A DNA stretch of 64,000 nucleotides from a virus: positions 64,001 through 128,000 of IMG/VR virus record IMGVR_UViG_3300045988_142085; one strand, given 5' to 3'. Both the position numbers and the translations under genes were made by a program. The stretch's first letter is position 1, and the number at the start of each line of letters is the position of its first letter. Positions 1,423-18,183 of the stretch are shown here, in pieces. The notes under the pieces are model-generated. The model saw only the letters and a list, made by a program, of their open reading frames with translations, made no database searches and had not been told where the DNA came from.

Positions 1423-2002
1423 TGCTAATTACCTTGATATCTTTAACGAGTACTTCATATGTCTCACGTTCACACTGATTAACTTTATCCCAGTATTTTC
1501 GATTAACGAACATACCTGTGATTTCAACATTCGTCTTTAACGGAATATCTCGTAAGATATTCGCATTAAGATTATGCCCGACACACGGGATAAAATCTTT
1601 TTCGGTGCCGTTATTGCGTTCGACCATTACAATATCATTACAGATATTATGACCATCTTTATTCGTAACTTTATTAATTTTAACGATTTTACCTTTAAGC
1701 TTCGTTTCGTTAAATTGAGACACGTGTTGATTAGCCTGGGTTAAATAACCATATACGATTAATTTAACTCCATTATCTGTTTTAATATTTTTAGTTCGAA
1801 TTTCACCGAATGCGTTAATGTGAGAACCATCTTTAAGATTGTATACTAAACGAACATTATCTTTAAAGTATACTGGAATTTTAATACTTCTTTTTTTAAC
1901 TTTCATTGATACGAAAGCTTTATATATATCTTGACCGTGAACATCTTGATGAGACACTTCAATCTCATCAATTGTTCCGGCTATATTTAGAAAATTATTC
2001 AC
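1412..2002 (-). CDS. hypothetical protein (196 aa)
   Basis: Long ORF in the co-directional array between gyrA and the DHFR gene. No recognisable motif. Confidence 0.6.
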   Translation of the reverse strand: MNNFLNIAGTIDEIEVSHQDVHGQDIYKAFVSMKVKKRSIKIPVYFKDNVRLVYNLKDGSHINAFGEIRTKNIKTDNGVKLIVYGYLTQANQHVSQFNETKLKGKIVKINKVTNKDGHNICNDIVMVERNNGTEKDFIPCVGHNLNANILRDIPLKTNVEITGMFVNRKYWDKVNQCERETYEVLVKDIKVISNGN

Positions 2003-2478
2003 TTTTTAATATACTTTCTAAATTCTAATTTAAATCCTGACTTCTCGTCAGTATCTTCTTTAGCATTAACTAGAGTAAAACCTCTAGTAATTTTATTGTA
2101 TGGGAACAACGTATCGCCGACTTTAAAATCTTCGACAACTGTTAAATAAACAGCGTCGCAATATTTTAAAAAGTCTCGATAAATTGTTCCGCCGCCAATA
2201 ATATAATAATCGTATCCTTCGAGCATAGCTGCTCTACATTCTTCGACCGAAGAAAATACTCGTACACCGGGATACGAAAAACCACTTTTACTAATTACCC
2301 AGTGTTCTCGATTAGGGAGAAGCCCAGGCAAACTTTCGAAGGTTTTTCGGCCCATTACGATAATTTTATTTAAAGTCTTCTTCTTAAAGAATGCAAGATC
2401 TTTAGGAATATGATATAGCAATTCATTATTCTTACCGATGTAATGAAATAAATTCATGCATCCGATCATATAGATCAT
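1999..2478 (-). CDS. folA: dihydrofolate reductase
   Basis: 159 aa with the DHFR fold signature (IVMGRKTFESLP...IIGGGTIYRDFL). Adjacent to thymidylate synthase, as in the T4 frd-td arrangement. Confidence 0.85.
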   Translation of the reverse strand: MIYMIGCMNLFHYIGKNNELLYHIPKDLAFFKKKTLNKIIVMGRKTFESLPGLLPNREHWVISKSGFSYPGVRVFSSVEECRAAMLEGYDYYIIGGGTIYRDFLKYCDAVYLTVVEDFKVGDTLFPYNKITRGFTLVNAKEDTDEKSGFKLEFRKYIKK

Positions 2479-3416
2479 ACAGCTACCTCGAAAGGAATTT
2501 TACCGCTATGCTCATAGTCTTCGAGAATTAAATCATCGATTTTAAAATCGTAAAAGCTTTTTACACGAGATTTAATTTCGACTTTTGGAGCATAATGGCT
2601 TCTATTTCCGACTTGAATAAATGCACCACGCAAATGATTTTCATAAACATGGGCATCGTTAATCATGATCGTAAACAAACCTGGTTTAAGATCACAGGTT
2701 TGCGCCATGAGTAATAATAGGAACGCATATTGGGCCATATTATATGGTAAGCCTACTAATGTATCGGAGCTACGAATATTTAATAATAAATTAAGTTTTC
2801 CGTTAGTGACATTCCATTCAGTTAAGAATGCACAAGGCTGCAATGCCATATTATTTAAATCTTCGACGTTCCATAGACTAACTACCATACGACGACTATC
2901 TTTATTAAAATGAAGATCGTAGATTAATTTATCGACTTGATTCATATAGATTTCTCCATTTTTACCGAGTCGATAATTTTTAATTTTACCTTCTTTTTTT
3001 AACTTAGCTACGTTTTCAGCTAATACGTCAAAATATTTATATTCTTTTCCTAGCTGATAACCGTAAGCTAAACCGATAGTACCGTCTTTACGTTCCCATT
3101 CATCCCAAATGGTAACATTATATTTACTACGTAATATTTCAACACTATTACTTTGATCTTGCCAGATCCACAGCATTTCTTTAATAGCTGTTTTAAGTCC
3201 GACAAATTTTGTCGTTAATAAAGGAAATTCATCTTCGAGATCGAATTGAAGCATCTTATGCGGTAAGCTAAAAGCATTAACACCGGTACGATTTTCTTTT
3301 AATTCGCCTTTTTCGATGATTTCACTGATCAACGGAATATACTGCCCGTCGGCTTCGTTCCGATAATCTTTATTAACGTCTTTAATAGTTTTAATTAATT
3401 GTTTAATGAAGCCCAC
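2475..3416 (-). CDS. thyA: thymidylate synthase (long Gram-positive type with insert)
   Basis: Contains NRTGV..FPLLTTK, VTIWDEW, DSRRMVVSLWNV and RSSD..GLPYNMAQYA (Asn, giving dUMP specificity). The catalytic Cys is present but the active-site motif reads QPCAF rather than PCH. Confidence 0.85.
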   Translation of the reverse strand: MGFIKQLIKTIKDVNKDYRNEADGQYIPLISEIIEKGELKENRTGVNAFSLPHKMLQFDLEDEFPLLTTKFVGLKTAIKEMLWIWQDQSNSVEILRSKYNVTIWDEWERKDGTIGLAYGYQLGKEYKYFDVLAENVAKLKKEGKIKNYRLGKNGEIYMNQVDKLIYDLHFNKDSRRMVVSLWNVEDLNNMALQPCAFLTEWNVTNGKLNLLLNIRSSDTLVGLPYNMAQYAFLLLLMAQTCDLKPGLFTIMINDAHVYENHLRGAFIQVGNRSHYAPKVEIKSRVKSFYDFKIDDLILEDYEHSGKIPFEVAV

Positions 3417-6077
3417 TTAGTCAACTCCAAAATTATTTAACACAAGATTCTTTCTAGCTTCCGAATCTTTCCCCATGATATCAGATACCATCTTAGCACA
3501 CTTTTCAGCGTCTTCGATAGTAATCTTATATAAATGTCTTTTCTTAGGATCCAAGGTAGATTCCCATAATTGATCGGGATTCATTTCTCCTAATCCTTTT
3601 ATATATTGCACATGCCATTGGTCTTTTTCTTTATATTTAGCTAGCTCTTCTTTCGTATAGATATATTTATGACTATTGCCTTTAACAAGTCTAAACAAAG
3701 GAGGAGCAGCTGCATAAATATAACCGTTCTCGATTAATTCTCGATAATGATTATAGAAGAACGTAGCCCAAAGGCAAATAATATGAGCCCCGTCGTCCGA
3801 CCGTACCCTCGGTTTCCCGATACTTCATAAAGGGACTAGACTATATTTTTATCCGTTCTGGATAGCACCTCTATAGTCGTTACACATTTACGATATTTTT
3901 TTAATATCGACTTAGCACGGTATTGCCATTGCTAGCCATTTCTGGCCCATCAGGTTCTCTTGATTATAGGAGCGCCTTCGCACATAATGTCTTATTCAAC
4001 TCCAACCGTAAGCATATTATTAGTTAATATACACCGCCTTGATAGCGTTAGGGTGCTTGTAATCTCTTGCATTCCTGCAAGGACGACTAATTTTTATTAA
4101 TCAGCATCTGACATTACGACAATCTTGTTATATTTTAAATCTTCGATATTGAATGATTTATCGATGCCGCAACCTAATGCGTTAACAAGGTCTAATAGTT
4201 TGTCAGACGTAACAGTACCGCCATTCTTTTCAGTATTCATTACTTTACCGAAAATAGGTAGCACAGCTTGATATTCGGGGTCACGTGCTTGCTTACTAGA
4301 GCCTCCGGCAGAATCTTAAGAGATATTTGTTTGGACTATATCTTACTTGTTAAAGCAAGTCCTACCGTTTCGATTTTTTAAAAATCTACTCTACTCAGTT
4401 CATATATATACTATATGCTTTTCGATAGTCTCTGAACGCGTTACAGATATCCGTTTTTTTTCCGTTCTGTAATTTCGCTGCGGATAATTTATAGTTTTGA
4501 CAATGTTACTATACCTAAGCCATTACGCTTTGCCATTATTATATCACTATAATAATTTAGTTGCCAATACTAATTTAAACTTCCCCGCAATTAGATAGGT
4601 TTAACGAGAGCGATTCTGTCTTTTACCCTCGACAATAAACAGTTCGCATTTTTTAGGGTCGTCACTATGACAATCGCTAAGTTTTTCTACGACAGTAGAT
4701 TTTAATGCTTTTTTCTGTTTACGTGCATTTTCTCTTGCCTTTTTAGCATCGAGTCTAGCTTTAATACTAAGATTAATTTTACTAGTCAATTGCTTAGCAA
4801 AAGTTTTTTTCTTTTTGAGCTCTTCTCCGAAAGACTCGGAAATTAATTCTTTAACTTGATCTCGAATCTCGGGCATCTGTAAATATAGTTTATTTTGACC
4901 TTCGAATTTTGGTTCGATAGTCTTAATATTTACGATAGCTACAAGACCTTCGATCGCATCGTCTTGTGTTAAATCTTTAATATTTAACTCTTTTAATGCT
5001 TGTACTATACCAGCTTTAAACCCATTTAAATGATCGCCGCCGTTTAAAGTATTGATATTATTTACAAACGTTAAAATCGTATTAGAATATAATCCATCAC
5101 AATAATTTAATACGACATGAACAGATGTATTATCTTTTTCTCCTTTAAATTCTAACGCTTTACCGATAGTTTCTTTAGGAGTAATATCTTTTAGATAATC
5201 TAAAAGAGTCGAAGATTTTAAGTTTACCCATTCTTCGCCTAAATTATATTTGATGGTAAGACCTTCGTTAAGATAACTTAACTGCTTAAGTTTCTTTTCG
5301 AGATCTTTAATATTAATAGGATCTGGATAGATTTCAGGATCTAATCGATATTCAATACGGGTACCCGTCTTTTTGGACTTTCGTCCTTTTTTAAGTTCTT
5401 GACTTAAGATACCTTTTTTAAAGCCAATAGACCATTCATATCCATCACGCCATACTGTGGCATTAAAATATTCGGAAACCGCATTAACGCAAGAACTCCC
5501 AACCAAAATCTTCAATAAAGAACGCTACTTCTTTATCAGTTCTCTTATGAACTTCTTTATGTTTCCATAAAGTTGAGACTATATCTTCTTAGACTTCCAC
5601 TTCGAGCACCAATAACTTGTGCCCTACTCCCTTACGGGATAGTCGTTGAACTTTATATATATACTTTTTAATATATATCTTAGCTGCTGATTACCCGCCC
5701 ATACGGGCTTTCCAGCAATTCAAAAGTTTTTACAACGGCATTTATTTACCGTTTAAGCCACCAGTAGCAGAGACCTGTCCGCTAAGTGAAACGAATTTTC
5801 CTCCAGCATGCAAAGAGCCTACCGCCAATTGTATTTGAGGAATGCCATATTTTTCATTAAGTGCGACTGGGATACCACGACCTTCGTCAGTGATAATCAT
5901 TACTTGAGTTTCGGGATTGTATTCTACAGTTATACATTTACCGAACCCAGTAACGAATTCGTCGACAGCATTGTCGATAATTTCGTGAGCACAATGATTT
6001 GGGCCATTCAAGTACATTTCTTTTCGTAGTCGAACATTGTCCGGATATTCGAGTACTAAAATTTCTTGTTCAGCCAT
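3417..6077 (-). CDS. gyrB: Type II topoisomerase ATPase subunit (GyrB/T4 gp39-like), split into 4 exons by three ORF-less group I-like introns. Approximate exons: 5748-6077, 4625-5503, 4101-4315, 3417-3797.
   Basis: Exon 1 carries the GHKL ATPase motifs (EIIDNAVDE, GRGIPV, LHAGGKF, TGGLNG). Exon 2 runs VGSSCVNAVS...ELFIVEG. Exon 3, translated by hand, reads DSAGGSSKQARDPEYQAVLPIFGKVMN...MSDAD (Toprim). Exon 4 reads DGAHII..YIYAAAPPLF...GLGEMNPDQLWESTLDP. Collinear GyrB homology resumes after each gap. Confidence 0.8.
3798..4100 (-). ncRNA. putative group I intron 3 in gyrB (~300 nt, no ORF)
   Basis: Interrupts DAD|DGAHI. Contains acGACTATAgagg...aaATATAGTCtag. Boundaries approximate. Confidence 0.55.
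4316..4624 (-). ncRNA. putative group I intron 2 in gyrB (~309 nt, no ORF)
   Basis: Interrupts IVEG|DSAGG. The 5' junction GGT|AAAAG is the same as in intron 1, and it has the same GACTAT...ATATAGTC candidate P7. Confidence 0.6.
5504..5747 (-). ncRNA. putative group I intron 1 in gyrB (~244 nt, no ORF)
   Basis: The exon ends on U (GGT|AAA) and the intron ends on G (..GATTTTG|GTT). An internal candidate P7 pairing is acgGACTATccc...agATATAGTCtc. Boundaries are good to about 3 nt. Confidence 0.6.
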
Positions 6078-6525: not shown

Positions 6526-6945
6526 TTAGCCAAGTAAATCTACAATAGGTTTCGCTTCTGCTTTTGGAGCATCGGCAAAGCTATCAAAGTTAGAAGCTTC
6601 GGATGCACCAGAGCCATCACGATGTTCATAATACATGCTGTCTACGATTACGTCAGTAGTATATACTTTAGTACCGTCTTCCTTTTCATAGGAACCAGTG
6701 CGGATAGCACCTTGTACAATAATTTGTTGACCTTGGTTTTTGTGAATTAAATCAGCAGTCATACCGAATGCTGTGCATGTAATGCTATCCCAATCTGGAT
6801 ATTCAGCATCTTTTGCTTTAAAATTACGTTGGCAAGACAAAGAGAAACGTAGCACGGATTTCTTTTCACCTTCACCTGGTTTGTAGCTATAAATACCTTT
6901 ACCTTCAGAATTAACACGGCCTTGAATAATTACTTGATTCAACAT
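6526..6945 (-). CDS. ssb: single-stranded DNA-binding protein (OB fold)
   Basis: MLNQVIIQGRV... has the SSB N-terminal pattern, an OB core and an acidic C-terminal tail (...DLLG). Confidence 0.75.
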   Translation of the reverse strand: MLNQVIIQGRVNSEGKGIYSYKPGEGEKKSVLRFSLSCQRNFKAKDAEYPDWDSITCTAFGMTADLIHKNQGQQIIVQGAIRTGSYEKEDGTKVYTTDVIVDSMYYEHRDGSGASEASNFDSFADAPKAEAKPIVDLLG

Positions 6946-7916: not shown

Positions 7917-10776
7917 TTACTTTGCCTCCTTATTTAAATAATATGAATATTTATTATTAACATCTTCCGAAGTAATACGAATTTCTTTCGTATTCTCATC
8001 GATGTCGAATAATTTATCGTCGACTAAACCTTGTACGACGCTTTTAAGTGCACGAGCACCTGTTTTTCGATCGTAGGCAAGTTTAGCAATAGTATCGACA
8101 GTATCGTCATCGAAAGTAATTTCGATATCATACATGCCGATCAATTCTTTAATTTGTTTAAAGATTGCGTGTTTTGGAGTCGTTAAAATTTGTTTTAAGT
8201 CTTCCACACTCAATTCTTTAAGCGGGCAAATTACTGGTAATCGACCTAATAATTCTGGAATAATACCAAAGTTATCGAGATCTTCAGGTAAGATATAATC
8301 GATTACGTCGTTATACTTAGATTTTTCTTCCAATACGTCTTTAGATGCTTCACTAGAGAAACCGAGGCCCGTATCTAAATCTTTATTTAACCTTGCCGCA
8401 ATCTTCTTTTCAATACCGGTAAATGCACCACCACAAATAAATAAAATATTAGTAGTATCAATTTCAACAGTAGGAGATGACATAGCAAATCCACCTTGTT
8501 GATCGTTAGACTTAATAGCGACTTTGCCGCCTTCAACGAGTTTTAATAACTCATATTGTACGTCACGACCACCGATATCACTACCTTGAGAGCCAGCATT
8601 TTTAGGATCTCGAGCAGCAATTTTATCGATTTCATCGATATAGACAATACCTTGTTGAGTTCGTTCGACATCGTTACCGGCTTCACGGTATAGTTTGGCT
8701 AAGATGCTATTAACGTCTTCACCAACGACAATTTGTTACCCTATAGGCTTTTTATCCTATAGCTCTTACAGTTACCTGTAAGTTCAGCGTACATTTTTTC
8801 AGTAAAAATATTATACAAACTGAAGTGATCACTCTTGGGAATATTTTATTCTTATCATTAAGGTTCAATTCCTACGCGTTACGGTGTCAAAAGCCTTTTA
8901 AAACTTTTGATTACCTCGGTATTTTCCACATGGGTGCTTCACCGATTTTGATCACTTTAATTACTCTGACTTATTTGTACTTTCATCAGAGAGGGCTCGT
9001 TTTAAAGATAAATATCTTTTCATTTTTCTATCGAGAAAAATAGAAGCATTAGAATATAAATAATCATAAAAAGATAATGTTAAATTTTTCTTATAAAGAA
9101 CTAATTTTTTATATGTGATATAATCATCTATTTTAAATTCAAAATTTGACAGTATTTGATTAATTGATTCTGCTAATAAAGAAGAACCAACAACTATAAC
9201 TGTTTGAATTTTTTTTATATTTTTAGTGATATATCCATTTCCATCAAAATATCCACGGATAAAACTTGAAATAAGATTTTCTTTTATATTTGGCATAAAA
9301 GCATTTTCTGTTTTATTATAAACTACACCTAATTTAAATAAATCTTCTACTAATTCTTTTGACACAATAGATACAACAGATGTTTTTCTATTTTTTCTAT
9401 GCTTAATTTCTAAATTTTTGGCGCCAATATCATTAATAAATTTATTTAAATGGTTATCATCAACAGAGCTTAACTCAATTGATAATCTATTTTTATAAAC
9501 ATTACCATCAGCCATAATAAAACCCAGCCAATATGCTTGTTTTTCTGACTCTATTTCCTTAAAAAAACTTTTATCAAACGTTACATTAGGTCTTTTATAA
9601 GTAAATCTCATATTAACATTTTTCTTTTTTAAGTATGCTGAAAATGATTTAACAGAAATTTTTAATTGTTCTGCTACTTTATACATAGGAATATTTTCTT
9701 CTACATATAGTCTTAATCCTTCAACATATCTAGGATCTTCTATTTCAAAATGGACATTTTTTTTAATTTCTATTCCATTTCGTTTAAAATATCTTCTTAA
9801 AGAACCTACATCTACATTATATTTTTTTGCTAAAGTAGAAGTAGATACTCCTTTATTTTCAGTATATTCTTTTATTGCTTTTTTATATTTATCTTCATTT
9901 TTATATCGTGTCATATTATGACCCTCCTTATGGTCATAATTATATTACACAATATATTTGTCTGTCAACCCCGATTTGGTGAGACTACTTGCATCGACAA
10001 TAACACATGGTCGACCAAGATATTTTGCTAATTGTTTAATTAAGAATGTTTTCAGTTGTGTTATCGTAAAAGTTTTTTATCTTCTACTTCTTATAGTTTC
10101 CTATAAGCTCAGCATACCTTTTTAGCGTATATTTTTTTACCAAACGCTAGAGCGGCCTCGTGGTAGAATTATATTCTTATTTTAAAAATAAGGTTCATCT
10201 ACTATGCGTTGCCCCTGACTAGAATATTATTTCTAGCCTTCGGTTCAGATTAGCATATGCACTTTATGCACTTAGCCTTCCTGCTTAATTCCGCTCAAAT
10301 AATCCAGAAGTTCATGGTTTTTTCTTCTAGAACGGCAAACTTTTACAGCCACCGCAACCCGAGGACCCCAGCATTAATATATTTGATTTCTCAACATCGA
10401 TTCCAACATCTTTTTTCTTAAACGCATTATATTCGAGAAGCTTAGTATGATTAGTAATCGCGACACTAAGAATTTTCTTAGCGTTATCCTGATTGATTAC
10501 ACTTTCATCCAAGTAGGCTTTAATTTCTTTAGGCTTAACATCAGACTTTTGAACTTTAGAAGATTTTTTCTTTTTAGGTTTTTCATCGTCTTCACCATCT
10601 AAAGATAAGCCTAAGATGTCATCGATATCAAAATCACCTTCATCGTCTTGAACTTGAGATGCCATTTTCATGACGCATTCTTGACAAATAGCGATATTTT
10701 TATTAACGGAAGACTGAAAAGTAATATTGTGACTTTTTTGATCGTCGATATCTTTACCGCAATAACTACATTTCAT
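7917..10776 (-). CDS. clpX: ClpX ATP-dependent protease ATPase subunit, split into 3 exons by two introns. Approximate exons: 10351-10776, 9969-10052, 7917-8735.
   Basis: Exon 1 has the zinc-ribbon start MKCSYCGK and ..KSNILMLGSSGCG. Exon 2 (hand translation) reads KTFLIKQLAKYLGRPCVIVDASSLTKSG, completing the Walker A. Exon 3 reads (Q)IVVGEDVNSILAKLYREAGNDVERTQQGIVYIDEIDKIA...NILFICGGAF...GARALKSVV. Confidence 0.8.
8736..9968 (-). mobile_element. group I intron B in clpX carrying a LAGLIDADG homing endonuclease gene
   Basis: A free-standing ORF with its own RBS (aaggaggg) sits inside the gap between clpX exons 2 and 3. It is flanked by ~50 nt and ~225 nt of non-coding intron sequence. Confidence 0.7.
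8961..9914 (-). CDS. LAGLIDADG-family homing endonuclease (317 aa) with N-terminal helix-turn-helix-like region
   Basis: Two LAGLIDADG motifs: WLGFIMADGNV and IRGYFDGNGYI. Confidence 0.8.
   Translation of the reverse strand: MTRYKNEDKYKKAIKEYTENKGVSTSTLAKKYNVDVGSLRRYFKRNGIEIKKNVHFEIEDPRYVEGLRLYVEENIPMYKVAEQLKISVKSFSAYLKKKNVNMRFTYKRPNVTFDKSFFKEIESEKQAYWLGFIMADGNVYKNRLSIELSSVDDNHLNKFINDIGAKNLEIKHRKNRKTSVVSIVSKELVEDLFKLGVVYNKTENAFMPNIKENLISSFIRGYFDGNGYITKNIKKIQTVIVVGSSLLAESINQILSNFEFKIDDYITYKKLVLYKKNLTLSFYDYLYSNASIFLDRKMKRYLSLKRALSDESTNKSE
10053..10350 (-). ncRNA. putative group I intron A in clpX (~298 nt, no ORF), inserted in the Walker A codons
   Basis: The exon-1 frame runs into a stop right after GSSGCG. 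Collinear ClpX sequence resumes at 10052, preceded by an intron-terminal G (..cacaactg|aaaaca). Its 3' end resembles the 3' end of intron B (gctgagcttataggaaactataag versus gctgaacttacaggtaactgtaag). Confidence 0.55.
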
Positions 10777-10777
10777 A

Positions 10778-11350
10778 TTACTTTTTCTCCTTCGCTTTAA
10801 TGATTTCGTCGATAAGACCCATATCGAGAGCCTGTTGAGCTTCTAGATAATTATCGCGTTCACATGCTTCATGAATTTGTTCGTAGGTAATTTTACCGTT
10901 AGATTTCTCAGCATATTTACGTTCCAACTTTTCGCGTAAGCGCTCAATATGTTTAGCGACAATCTGAATATCGGTCTGTTGACCTTGTACACCAGTTAAT
11001 GGCTGATGAATCATAACTTCGGTGTTTTCGAGAACACTTCGTTTGTCGCCCATACTCAATAAAAAGCTAGCCATACTAGCACACATGCCCATACCGACAG
11101 TATGAACTGGACAATTAATGGTACGCATAGTATCGTAAATTGCCATACCGGCCGTAATACTGCCACCAGGACTATTAATATATAGTTTAATAGGCTTACG
11201 ACTACTTTCGTTCGCTAAATATAACATTGCAGGAACGACAAAGTTAGCTAATTCGTCATTAATTTGGCCCGTGATAAATAACACACGGTCTTCTAAAAGT
11301 TTATCGAAAAGGTTTACGCGAACACCTTCAGAATCTTTAATTACGGACAC
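10778..11350 (-). CDS. clpP: ClpP serine protease subunit
   Basis: 190 aa with GMCASMAS (Ser), MIHQP (His) and the ClpP fold pattern. It lies immediately downstream of clpX exon 1. Confidence 0.85.
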   Translation of the reverse strand: MSVIKDSEGVRVNLFDKLLEDRVLFITGQINDELANFVVPAMLYLANESSRKPIKLYINSPGGSITAGMAIYDTMRTINCPVHTVGMGMCASMASFLLSMGDKRSVLENTEVMIHQPLTGVQGQQTDIQIVAKHIERLREKLERKYAEKSNGKITYEQIHEACERDNYLEAQQALDMGLIDEIIKAKEKK

Positions 11351-17723: not shown

Positions 17724-18183
17724 AATCGTCGATATCTACAAGTTTTTCAGGTAAAAAAAGATCTACCATGTCAGTATCTTTTTTCTCAGCATACAAATTT
17801 CCTGTAAATTTAAATTTTTTAGCAGATCCATTATGCTTTTTAAGAATATCTTGAGTTAGGCTAAAGAAATATTCTTTAGACCATTTCTGATTATTTAAAA
17901 CTTCTGAATAGTCTTTAAAATAAATATTGACAGGCTCATTATCTTCAAAATGGTCTTTAAATATATCATATGGTTCTTGACAGGCATCTTGAATATAATC
18001 CATGAAAATATTAAACATAATTGTAATAGGAAGTTTAATCACTTCATTATCTTTTTGATCGATTATTTTTTCTGTAATCCAATCAATATATTCTTTTTCT
18101 GTCATATTTTGTTCAAGATATTCTAAAGCTTTGTCAGGATTATCAGGATCAATCAAAGATTTTAAAATAATTTTATTGATCAT
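17701..18183 (-). CDS. hypothetical protein, paralog of 16743-17306
   Basis: Paralog pair. Confidence 0.55.
   Translation of the reverse strand: MINKIILKSLIDPDNPDKALEYLEQNMTEKEYIDWITEKIIDQKDNEVIKLPITIMFNIFMDYIQDACQEPYDIFKDHFEDNEPVNIYFKDYSEVLNNQKWSKEYFFSLTQDILKKHNGSAKKFKFTGNLYAEKKDTDMVDLFLPEKLVDIDDFVFAKED

Follow-up and report, generated by a model that had tools for sequence, protein, structure and literature searches.

Phage genes interrupted by more than one small group I intron have a precedent in Staphylococcus phage Twort, in which Landthaler and Shub reportedly found that orf142 holds three group I introns and nrdE two. Here we describe a gene for a GyrB/ParE-like type IIA topoisomerase subunit that is split by three gaps with group I features, designated introns A, B, and C in gene order, in the virus genome of IMG/VR record IMGVR_UViG_3300045988_142085. 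The analysis covered a 64-kb stretch of that record (positions 64,001 to 128,000; the window), to which all coordinates refer, and the gyrB-like gene lies on its minus strand. As in Twort, several small group I introns with related cores occupy conserved sites of a single phage gene, and a 62-nt stretch of the core of intron A is 89% identical to the annotated nrdE group I intron of the Twort-like Staphylococcus phage phiIPLA-C1C. Unlike in Twort, the host gene encodes a GyrB-like subunit, the introns are not all of one type (C has no P7.1/P7.2 hairpins), and one of them lacks the 3'-terminal guanosine (omega-G). The lineage is also uncultivated and unrelated to Twort; megablast and tblastn searches of INPHARED returned no close relative, only intron-core matches of 54 to 62 nt and GyrB proteins with ≤38% identity.

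The introns of T4 td, nrdB, and nrdD (sunY) and of the SPO1-family DNA polymerase genes carry homing endonucleases. The gyrB-like locus resembles them in that the interrupted genes serve nucleotide metabolism or replication, in the placement of open reading frames (ORFs) in peripheral loops, in presence/absence polymorphism, and in ORF loss, but it differs in having five sites in one gene over a natural population and endonucleases of the HNH-AP2 and LAGLIDADG types. Topoisomerase genes are interrupted in other ways as well: a mobile endonuclease gene divides topoisomerase genes 39/60 of T4, and bacterial gyrB can contain inteins. There, too, selfish elements recurrently target conserved motifs of this protein family, although those interruptions are resolved at the protein level, by separate subunits or protein splicing, and not by RNA splicing.

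The "Jug" jumbo gut phages (Sci Adv 2026) are similarly large uncultivated phages of animal-associated microbiomes, in which numerous short group I introns, along with homing endonucleases, break up essential genes (PMC12880540). Their genomes measure 360 to 402 kb versus ~230 kb here, and the two lineages are probably different; topoisomerase IV is listed for them as a conserved single-copy gene and not as an intron host (PMC12880540). Splicing of the Jug introns was validated by metatranscriptomes (PMC12880540), whereas that of the gyrB-like introns is predicted from DNA sequence.

Four exons and their natural alleles

Four in-frame coding blocks make up the gyrB-like gene, as seen in both the ORF listing and the raw sequence. 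Joined, they form 1,806 nt (601 codons plus a stop codon) with an unbroken frame. The joined protein matched the Pfam families HATPase_c, DNA_gyraseB, Toprim, and DNA_gyraseB_C, all four above their own cutoffs, and contains the GHKL ATPase, transducer, Toprim, and C-terminal domains of GyrB/ParE. It aligned with phage and bacterial GyrB/ParE proteins as a single tblastn piece (99% coverage, ≤38% identity), and solved GyrB/ParE chains align through all three joins (tgglngvgsscvna, fivegdsaggsskq, and msdadddgahi). The GxxGxG, EGDSA, and DxD motifs are whole only once the exons are joined. An earlier model-generated description of the sequence (the first-pass annotation) had placed breaks at GGLNG/VGSS and IVEG/DSAGG (slashes mark insertion sites here and below), and collinearity with solved GyrB bears both out; its third break, DAD/(V)DGAHI, was correct in position but not in the residue "(V)", which is D in this protein (DAD/DDGAHI). 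The three ORF-free gaps of ~245 to 310 nt that it described measure 244, 309, and 302 nt and lack any sense-strand ORF of ≥30 amino acids (aa), and the upstream exons end in U at all three sites, as it had stated (GGT/AAA twice and GAT/TAA once). The G+C contents of the gaps are 0.35, 0.32, and 0.40, versus 0.32 for the whole window. In a protein search for uninterrupted close homologues, the nearest clusters were exon fragments (P0001, 410 aa with 736 members, and P0002), beyond which the next matches had ≤45% identity.

Scans with the spliced protein recovered 19 viral-contig loci and 23 close metagenome loci, mostly on contigs of ~230 kb. Across 39 related loci (cited by L numbers where needed), each intron is precisely present or absent, and L001 has no intron in the gyrB-like gene. 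Empty sites read AATGGC/GTGGGA for intron A (L002 to L004, L009 to L011, and others), GAAGGC/GATAGT (L006, L020, and L040) or GAAGGT/GATTCG for intron B, and GCTGAT/GACGAC for intron C (L003 to L005, L007, L011 to L013, and others). Because these alleles fix the junctions, the intron boundaries are exact. The pattern of three introns lies far beyond chance, given the Rfam E value of intron A (see below) and the related phages in which each gap is precisely absent.

Longer forms occupy the same sites in relatives. At sites A and B, these are 932 to 946 nt long and encode homologous HNH+AP2 endonucleases (34% identity, E = 2e-33); at site C, they are 1,230 to 1,250 nt long and encode a LAGLIDADG protein in the P1 loop. 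Site-specific presence or absence and endonuclease ORFs in peripheral loops, the marks of mobile group I introns, are thus both found, and the three introns of the window are ORF-less derivatives. A further site in relatives, LHAGG/KF, holds introns of 286 to 289 nt or of 1,369 nt with LAGLIDADG, and a fifth, TLNGGD/HLNGFK (L040:4220-4831), holds an intron of ~610 nt with U at -1, a terminal G, and no long ORF seen. L036 carries four introns at once. Over the lineage, the gyrB-like gene thus has at least five intron sites, all in the most conserved motifs of the protein.

We assign a probability of about 0.85 to the reading that the region encodes one GyrB/ParE-like type IIA subunit from a pre-mRNA with three degenerate, formerly mobile, conventional self-splicing group I introns.

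A scan of viral contigs for the spliced junction (ATTGTCGAGGGTGAYWSTGC) found only unrelated phage topoisomerase genes with 25 to 33% identity that share the motif at the nucleotide level. The exact 20-nt intron B target ATTGTCGAGGGT/GAYWSTGC was seen uninterrupted in unrelated phage topoisomerase genes (L098 to L103; 25 to 33% protein identity), so the homing site exists well outside this lineage.

Group I features of the three introns

The group I identity put forward in the first-pass annotation is upheld by a guide that forms a U·G pair with exon position -1, a P3/P7 pseudoknot core, and a guanosine-binding P7 of GACUA and UAGUC in all three introns, together with the precise absence alleles and endonuclease-bearing relatives. 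This sequence is that of the classical guanosine site, as in P7 of Tetrahymena. The GACTA...ATATAGTC pair that had been singled out is indeed present in each gap; the claimed spacing of 30 to 40 nt did not hold, the arms being 54, 83, and 26 nt apart.

Intron A gave a full-length match to the Rfam Intron_gpI model (RF00028), with 94.2 bits against a gathering score of 50 (E = 6e-23). Apart from the stretch shared with the nrdE intron, another part of it is 87% identical over 54 nt to the gap that splits the terminase gene of Escherichia phage Av-05. Between P7 and P3', it has one additional hairpin of the P7.1/P7.2 type (UCCCGUAAGGGA). Such hairpins, which may indicate an IA2-like architecture, number one in A, two in B (where P7.2 covaries), and none in C, and at least two intron types are therefore present in the gene.

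The structure of intron B was evaluated on an alignment of 12 ORF-less copies, all distinct. On this alignment, RNAalifold arrived independently at P1, P3, P4, the P5 extension, P7.2, and P8. An explicit structure of 68 pairs, including the P3/P7 pseudoknot, had 98.5% of its cells paired versus 36 to 48% in slid controls, and double-sided changes occurred at 27 pairs versus 3 to 8 in those controls, a level of covariation reached by none of 500 shuffles. The covariation spans P3, P4, P5, P7, P7.2, and P8, with compensatory changes at four of the six pairs of P3 and five of the seven pairs of P8. In P1, GCUCUCG (4605-4611) pairs with the exon sequence CGAGGGU; the U·G pair at the cut is invariant in all 12 copies, and one P1 pair shows a compensatory change. 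Directly abutting P1, CAGAAUC (4612-4618) forms P10 with GAUUCUG of the 3' exon (4309-4315) through seven Watson-Crick pairs. The last 14 nt of the HNH ORF remain in the intron, where they also serve as the 3' strand of P6a, which identifies the intron B of the window as an ORF-deletion derivative.

Two further observations were made on intron B alleles. In a group of site B introns that end in omega-G (L002 to L005, L017, L021 to L023, and L041), the 3' strand of P7 is UAGCCC and not UAGUCC while GACUA is kept, so that an A·C mismatch stacks on the guanosine-binding pair. By eye, the tail of the window intron (4309-4332, minus strand) can form a hairpin that crosses the splice site and takes in the first 3 to 4 exon bases. 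The homologous tails of L009, L015, L002, and L007 track the exon in the same way (GUCCA...UG/GAC, AAUC...AA/GAUU, and AUC...AA/GAU), and this hairpin may be a regulatory helix or a competitor of P10.

Besides P2, intron C has a large P5 extension and a P9 hairpin capped by a GAAA loop. RNAalifold recovered its P2, P6, P7, and P8, and P3, P4, P6, P7, and P8 are seen by Rfam alignment, RNAalifold, and inspection, with weaker support and almost no covariation. In L036 and the long copies of the L014 type, the P9 stem UCGG-GAAA-CCGA is replaced by UCAG/CUGA. A 6-bp match between GUCGUC of the guide and GACGAC of the 3' exon was rejected as P10, as it overlaps the P1 strand and stems from repeated Asp codons.

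In the proposed mechanism, each intron would fold as a ribozyme whose internal guide forms P1 with the end of the upstream exon, placing a U·G wobble at the cut. An exogenous guanosine at the G-C pair of P7 would attack the 5' splice site, and the freed 3'-OH of the exon would then attack the 3' splice site, aligned by P10, to join the exons. The product would be a 601-aa protein with intact GGLNGVG, EGDSAGG, and DADDDG motifs. We infer from the sequence features that the three introns are actually spliced and that splicing is autocatalytic. The introns would be degenerate descendants of mobile introns with HNH-AP2 (A and B) or LAGLIDADG (C) homing endonucleases, and their position in the most conserved motifs may reflect that endonuclease targets have the least freedom to escape by mutation at such places.

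The terminal adenosine of intron B

Introns A and C end in omega-G; intron B ends in A4316. Its 3' splice site is placed between A4316 and G4315 because the reading frame, the empty-site alleles, and the P10 register agree. Manual enumeration of other in-frame 3' sites ending in G yielded none that was acceptable: the only downstream one lies 24 nt away, and its use would remove the DSAGGSSK motif. Upstream, the nearest G is within P7 and out of frame. A sequencing error was ruled out because the same state is found in at least nine contigs from different assemblies (the window and L007, L011/L027, L012, L013/L039, L014/L038, L026, L036, and L037). In about two-thirds of the contigs, the site B omega base is G (...UUUG/GAC, ...AUUG/GAU, and ...CUCUG/GAC). 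Copies ending in A (omega-A) share P7 and J8/7 with the omega-G copies, including the guanosine-binding G-C pair, and have a P10 of 6 to 7 bp.

Engineered Tetrahymena ribozymes that likewise end in A have reportedly been active (Michel and colleagues in 1989; Been and Perrotta in 1991) only when G264-C311 was changed to A-U. Intron B keeps the G-C pair in P7, so this rescue does not apply to it. In the literature, omega-G is treated as a rule (PMC3984707; 10.1101/2020.01.27.920355), with one database stating "most frequently, the terminal G" (PMC11835236). A limited literature search found no description of a natural intron with omega-A or another non-G omega base.

Four lines of evidence argue that the omega-A copies still function. 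First, over the 198 codons downstream (exons 3 and 4), omega-A genomes differ from one another by 26 to 45 synonymous versus 0 to 4 nonsynonymous changes, and all copies are intact. Second, a P7 pair changed from U-A to C-G within the omega-A clade (L007, L012, L014, L026, L036, and L037), with a U·G intermediate in L013. Third, at least three losses of the endonuclease ORF at site B, giving forms of 309, 320, and 528 nt, left the ribozyme core in place. Fourth, the guide base opposite G4315 is C in the window (U in most other omega-A alleles) and pairs with the exon G, not with the first A of the intron. On this evidence, intron B probably completes exon ligation with its terminal A, held by the P10 of 6 to 7 bp, if only by a slight balance of likelihood. 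The chances are about even that the window intron and its relatives in at least eight other contigs form a natural clade that splices accurately with a 3'-terminal A, in which the G-C pair is kept and P10 sets the 3' site in place of omega-G. The omega-A clade lacks one defining feature of the family, otherwise looks and evolves like a working group I ribozyme, and is possibly a new variant.

The rival that survives best, which we consider unlikely, holds that the omega-A intron is impaired in the second step or is mis-spliced after G4315, the nearest G, with a frameshift that would leave an ATPase-only protein of 403 aa plus ~25 aa. The omega-A form would then be a selfish, mildly deleterious allele, tolerated because a phage topoisomerase may be dispensable; mutants of the phage T4 topoisomerase are viable. 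The unchanged G-C pair of P7, which shows no visible adaptation to A, fits such an impairment, and the omega-A tail recombines with the flanking exon (in L013, a P8 of the omega-G type is joined to an omega-A tail); the signal of selection may thus be inherited from earlier backgrounds. Set against this are the intact exons 3 and 4 with their excess of synonymous differences, the compensatory P7 change that arose inside the clade, the three independent ORF deletions that left the core intact, and an intron C that is also intact downstream in the window. Mis-splicing at G4315 in particular is opposed by P10, whose seven Watson-Crick pairs include G4315 as an exon base.

A very unlikely variant makes G4315 a normal omega-G and moves the 5' cut one base downstream (GAGGGUA/), giving EGNSAGG and not EGDSAGG. 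The product would stay in frame, the Escherichia coli GyrB D426N protein is functional (a nalidixic acid resistance allele), and the guide base beside the wobble G, being U in most omega-A alleles, could pair with the first A of the intron. However, the conserved U·G would then fall at -2, with cleavage after A; the C in the guide of the window would form an A·C mismatch in this register versus a G-C pair in the canonical one, which disfavors the one-base shift; and every intronless and omega-G allele encodes D at the position.

Finally, it is highly unlikely that the gaps stay unspliced and the subunit assembles from separate polypeptides like T4 gp39/gp60: split type II topoisomerase subunits do exist in T4, and an in-frame stop follows each exon within a few codons of the intron start, but start codons and ribosome-binding sites are missing from the 5' ends of exons 2, 3, and 4 (exon 3 begins with GAU right after UAA), the GGLNGVG, EGDSA, and DxD motifs are each interrupted by a break, ribozyme cores with covariation occupy the gaps, and homologous genes are uninterrupted.

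Several points weigh against the interpretation of the region as one gene with three conventional self-splicing introns. In the Rfam search that the first-pass annotation had proposed, intron A passed, and introns B and C, at 24.3 and 24.4 bits (E = 0.002 each in a local 2.9-kb scan), fell below the gathering score. The model penalizes their P5 insertions of ~100 nt, and the Rfam core alignments of both introns cover P3, P4, P6, J8/7, and P7. The absence of a group I core in Rfam, had it been taken as a refutation, would have misjudged two of the three introns. The homologues of intron C are too similar for covariation, with only three double changes, and its P10 is unclear. A G414A change in Tetrahymena is reported to block exon ligation. 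A terminal A together with a G-C guanosine-binding pair contradicts textbook requirements (PMC3984707). Since introns move by homing and recombination, the signal of purifying selection may partly predate the omega-A tail. No spliced cDNA or metatranscript turned up in the viral-contig junction scan or the protein search.

The clpX introns, genomic setting, and implications

The two clpX introns reported by the first-pass annotation are real: the joined protein (440 aa) is collinear with solved ClpX structures over both junctions. Its description of an intron-rich phage was likewise correct, with five introns within a 7-kb stretch of the window, and the concept is already known (PMC12880540). 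Scanned with Rfam, the clpX introns matched no group I model even at E ≤ 10. The first of them (10053-10350) is ~70% identical (220 of 317 columns) to the gyrB introns at LHAGG/KF (L006:2722-3007 and L036:4090-4378), and both are inserted at GGT/AAA. This resemblance indicates one intron family in two genes and suggests ectopic transposition. Just upstream of the LAGLIDADG ORF in clpX intron 2, a hairpin (9917-9963, minus strand; UAUGACC-AUAAGGAG-GGUCAUA) carries the AAGGAGG ribosome-binding site of that ORF and gives a weak, subthreshold Rfam match to cow-rumen-4 (29 bits).

According to Pfam, the gyrB-like gene is set in a tightly packed operon of replication and nucleotide-metabolism genes, the coordinates of which are given with those of the intron elements in Table 1. 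No GyrA-like partner was found in the window. A gene for a macro-domain protein (18173-18667, minus strand) belongs to the same operon-like block. Elsewhere in the window are a TnpB-like ORF (19780-20991, minus strand), with OrfB_IS605 and a Cas12f1-like TNB domain, and an OTKONC RNA (Rfam RF03053; 38792-38962, minus strand), a full-length match of 170 bits against a gathering score of 141.

Table 1. Exons, intron elements, and neighboring genes at the gyrB-like locus (window coordinates)
Feature	Position	Strand	Description
Exon 1	5748-6077	-	aa 1-110; last residues GGLNG, final codon GGT
Intron A	5504-5747	-	244 nt, ORF-less group I (Rfam RF00028); last base G5504
Intron A guide GCCGUU	5734-5739	-	pairs with exon AACGGU (5748-5753); U·G at 5' splice site
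Intron A P7	GACUA 5640-5644, UAGUC 5577-5581	-	J8/7 AAGAUA precedes UAGUC
Exon 2	4625-5503	-	aa 111-403; last residues FIVEG, final codon GGT
Intron B	4316-4624	-	309 nt, ORF-less group I; large P5 extension, P7.1/P7.2; ends ...CUCUUAA/GAUUCU
Intron B guide CAGAAUC-GCUCUCG	4605-4618	-	P1 and P10 strands
Intron B P7	G-A(bulge)-GACUA 4426-4432, UAGUCC 4333-4338	-	guanosine-binding G-C beside bulge
Intron B elements between P7 arms	P3' GGUAGG 4361-4366, P8 4345-4360	-	also P7.1 and P7.2
HNH-AP2 ORF 3'-end remnant (...NGYL*, ACGGAUAUCUGUAA)	4441-4454	-	last 14 nt; versus 932- to 946-nt versions
Last base of intron B	4316	-	A in place of omega-G; frame, intronless alleles, P10 register
Exon 3	4100-4315	-	aa 404-475; DSAGG...MSDAD, final codon GAT
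Intron C	3798-4099	-	302 nt, ORF-less group I; last base G3798
Intron C guide UUAGUCG	4084-4090	-	pairs with UGAU/UAA (4097-4103); U·G at splice site
Intron C P7	GACUAUA 3872-3878, UAUAGUC 3839-3845	-	arms
Intron C P3' GGUGC	3865-3869	-	pairs with GCACC at 4052-4056
Intron C P8	3851-3863	-	core helix
Exon 4	3417-3797	-	aa 476-601; DDGAHI...NNFGVD plus stop; thyA start codon directly after
DHFR	1999-2478		neighboring gene (Pfam)
Thymidylate synthase	2475-3416		neighboring gene (Pfam)
SSB	6526-6945		neighboring gene (Pfam)
clpX	7917-10776	-	exons 10776-10351, 10052-9968, 8728-7917
clpX intron 1	10350-10053	-	298 nt, ORF-less; GGT/...CUG/AAA
clpX intron 2	9967-8729	-	1,239 nt; LAGLIDADG ORF at 8961-9914
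clpP	10778-11350		neighboring gene, beyond split clpX (Pfam)

As a phage gene with three introns, the locus is a routine addition to a well-known class, and a gene for a topoisomerase B subunit that is polymorphic at five sites among natural phages adds a new instance to a kind already known. With at least five sites, each found in empty, ORF-bearing, and ORF-less states, the locus offers an unusually complete natural view of the life cycle of homing endonucleases and their introns. At its curated threshold, the single Rfam group I model misses two of the three introns here, all three introns of the four-intron L036 that are not at site A, and both clpX introns.

The accepted two-step mechanism depends centrally on recognition of omega-G by the P7 pocket. 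If omega-A ligation with an unchanged pocket proves true, it would reveal the extent to which alignment by P10 and P9.0 can replace omega-G, and the omega-A clade would stand as a natural departure from a rule regarded as universal for group I ribozymes. The clade would then provide a ready system for studies of the second step and for ribozyme engineering, in which circular-RNA and trans-splicing designs are now constrained to a terminal G.

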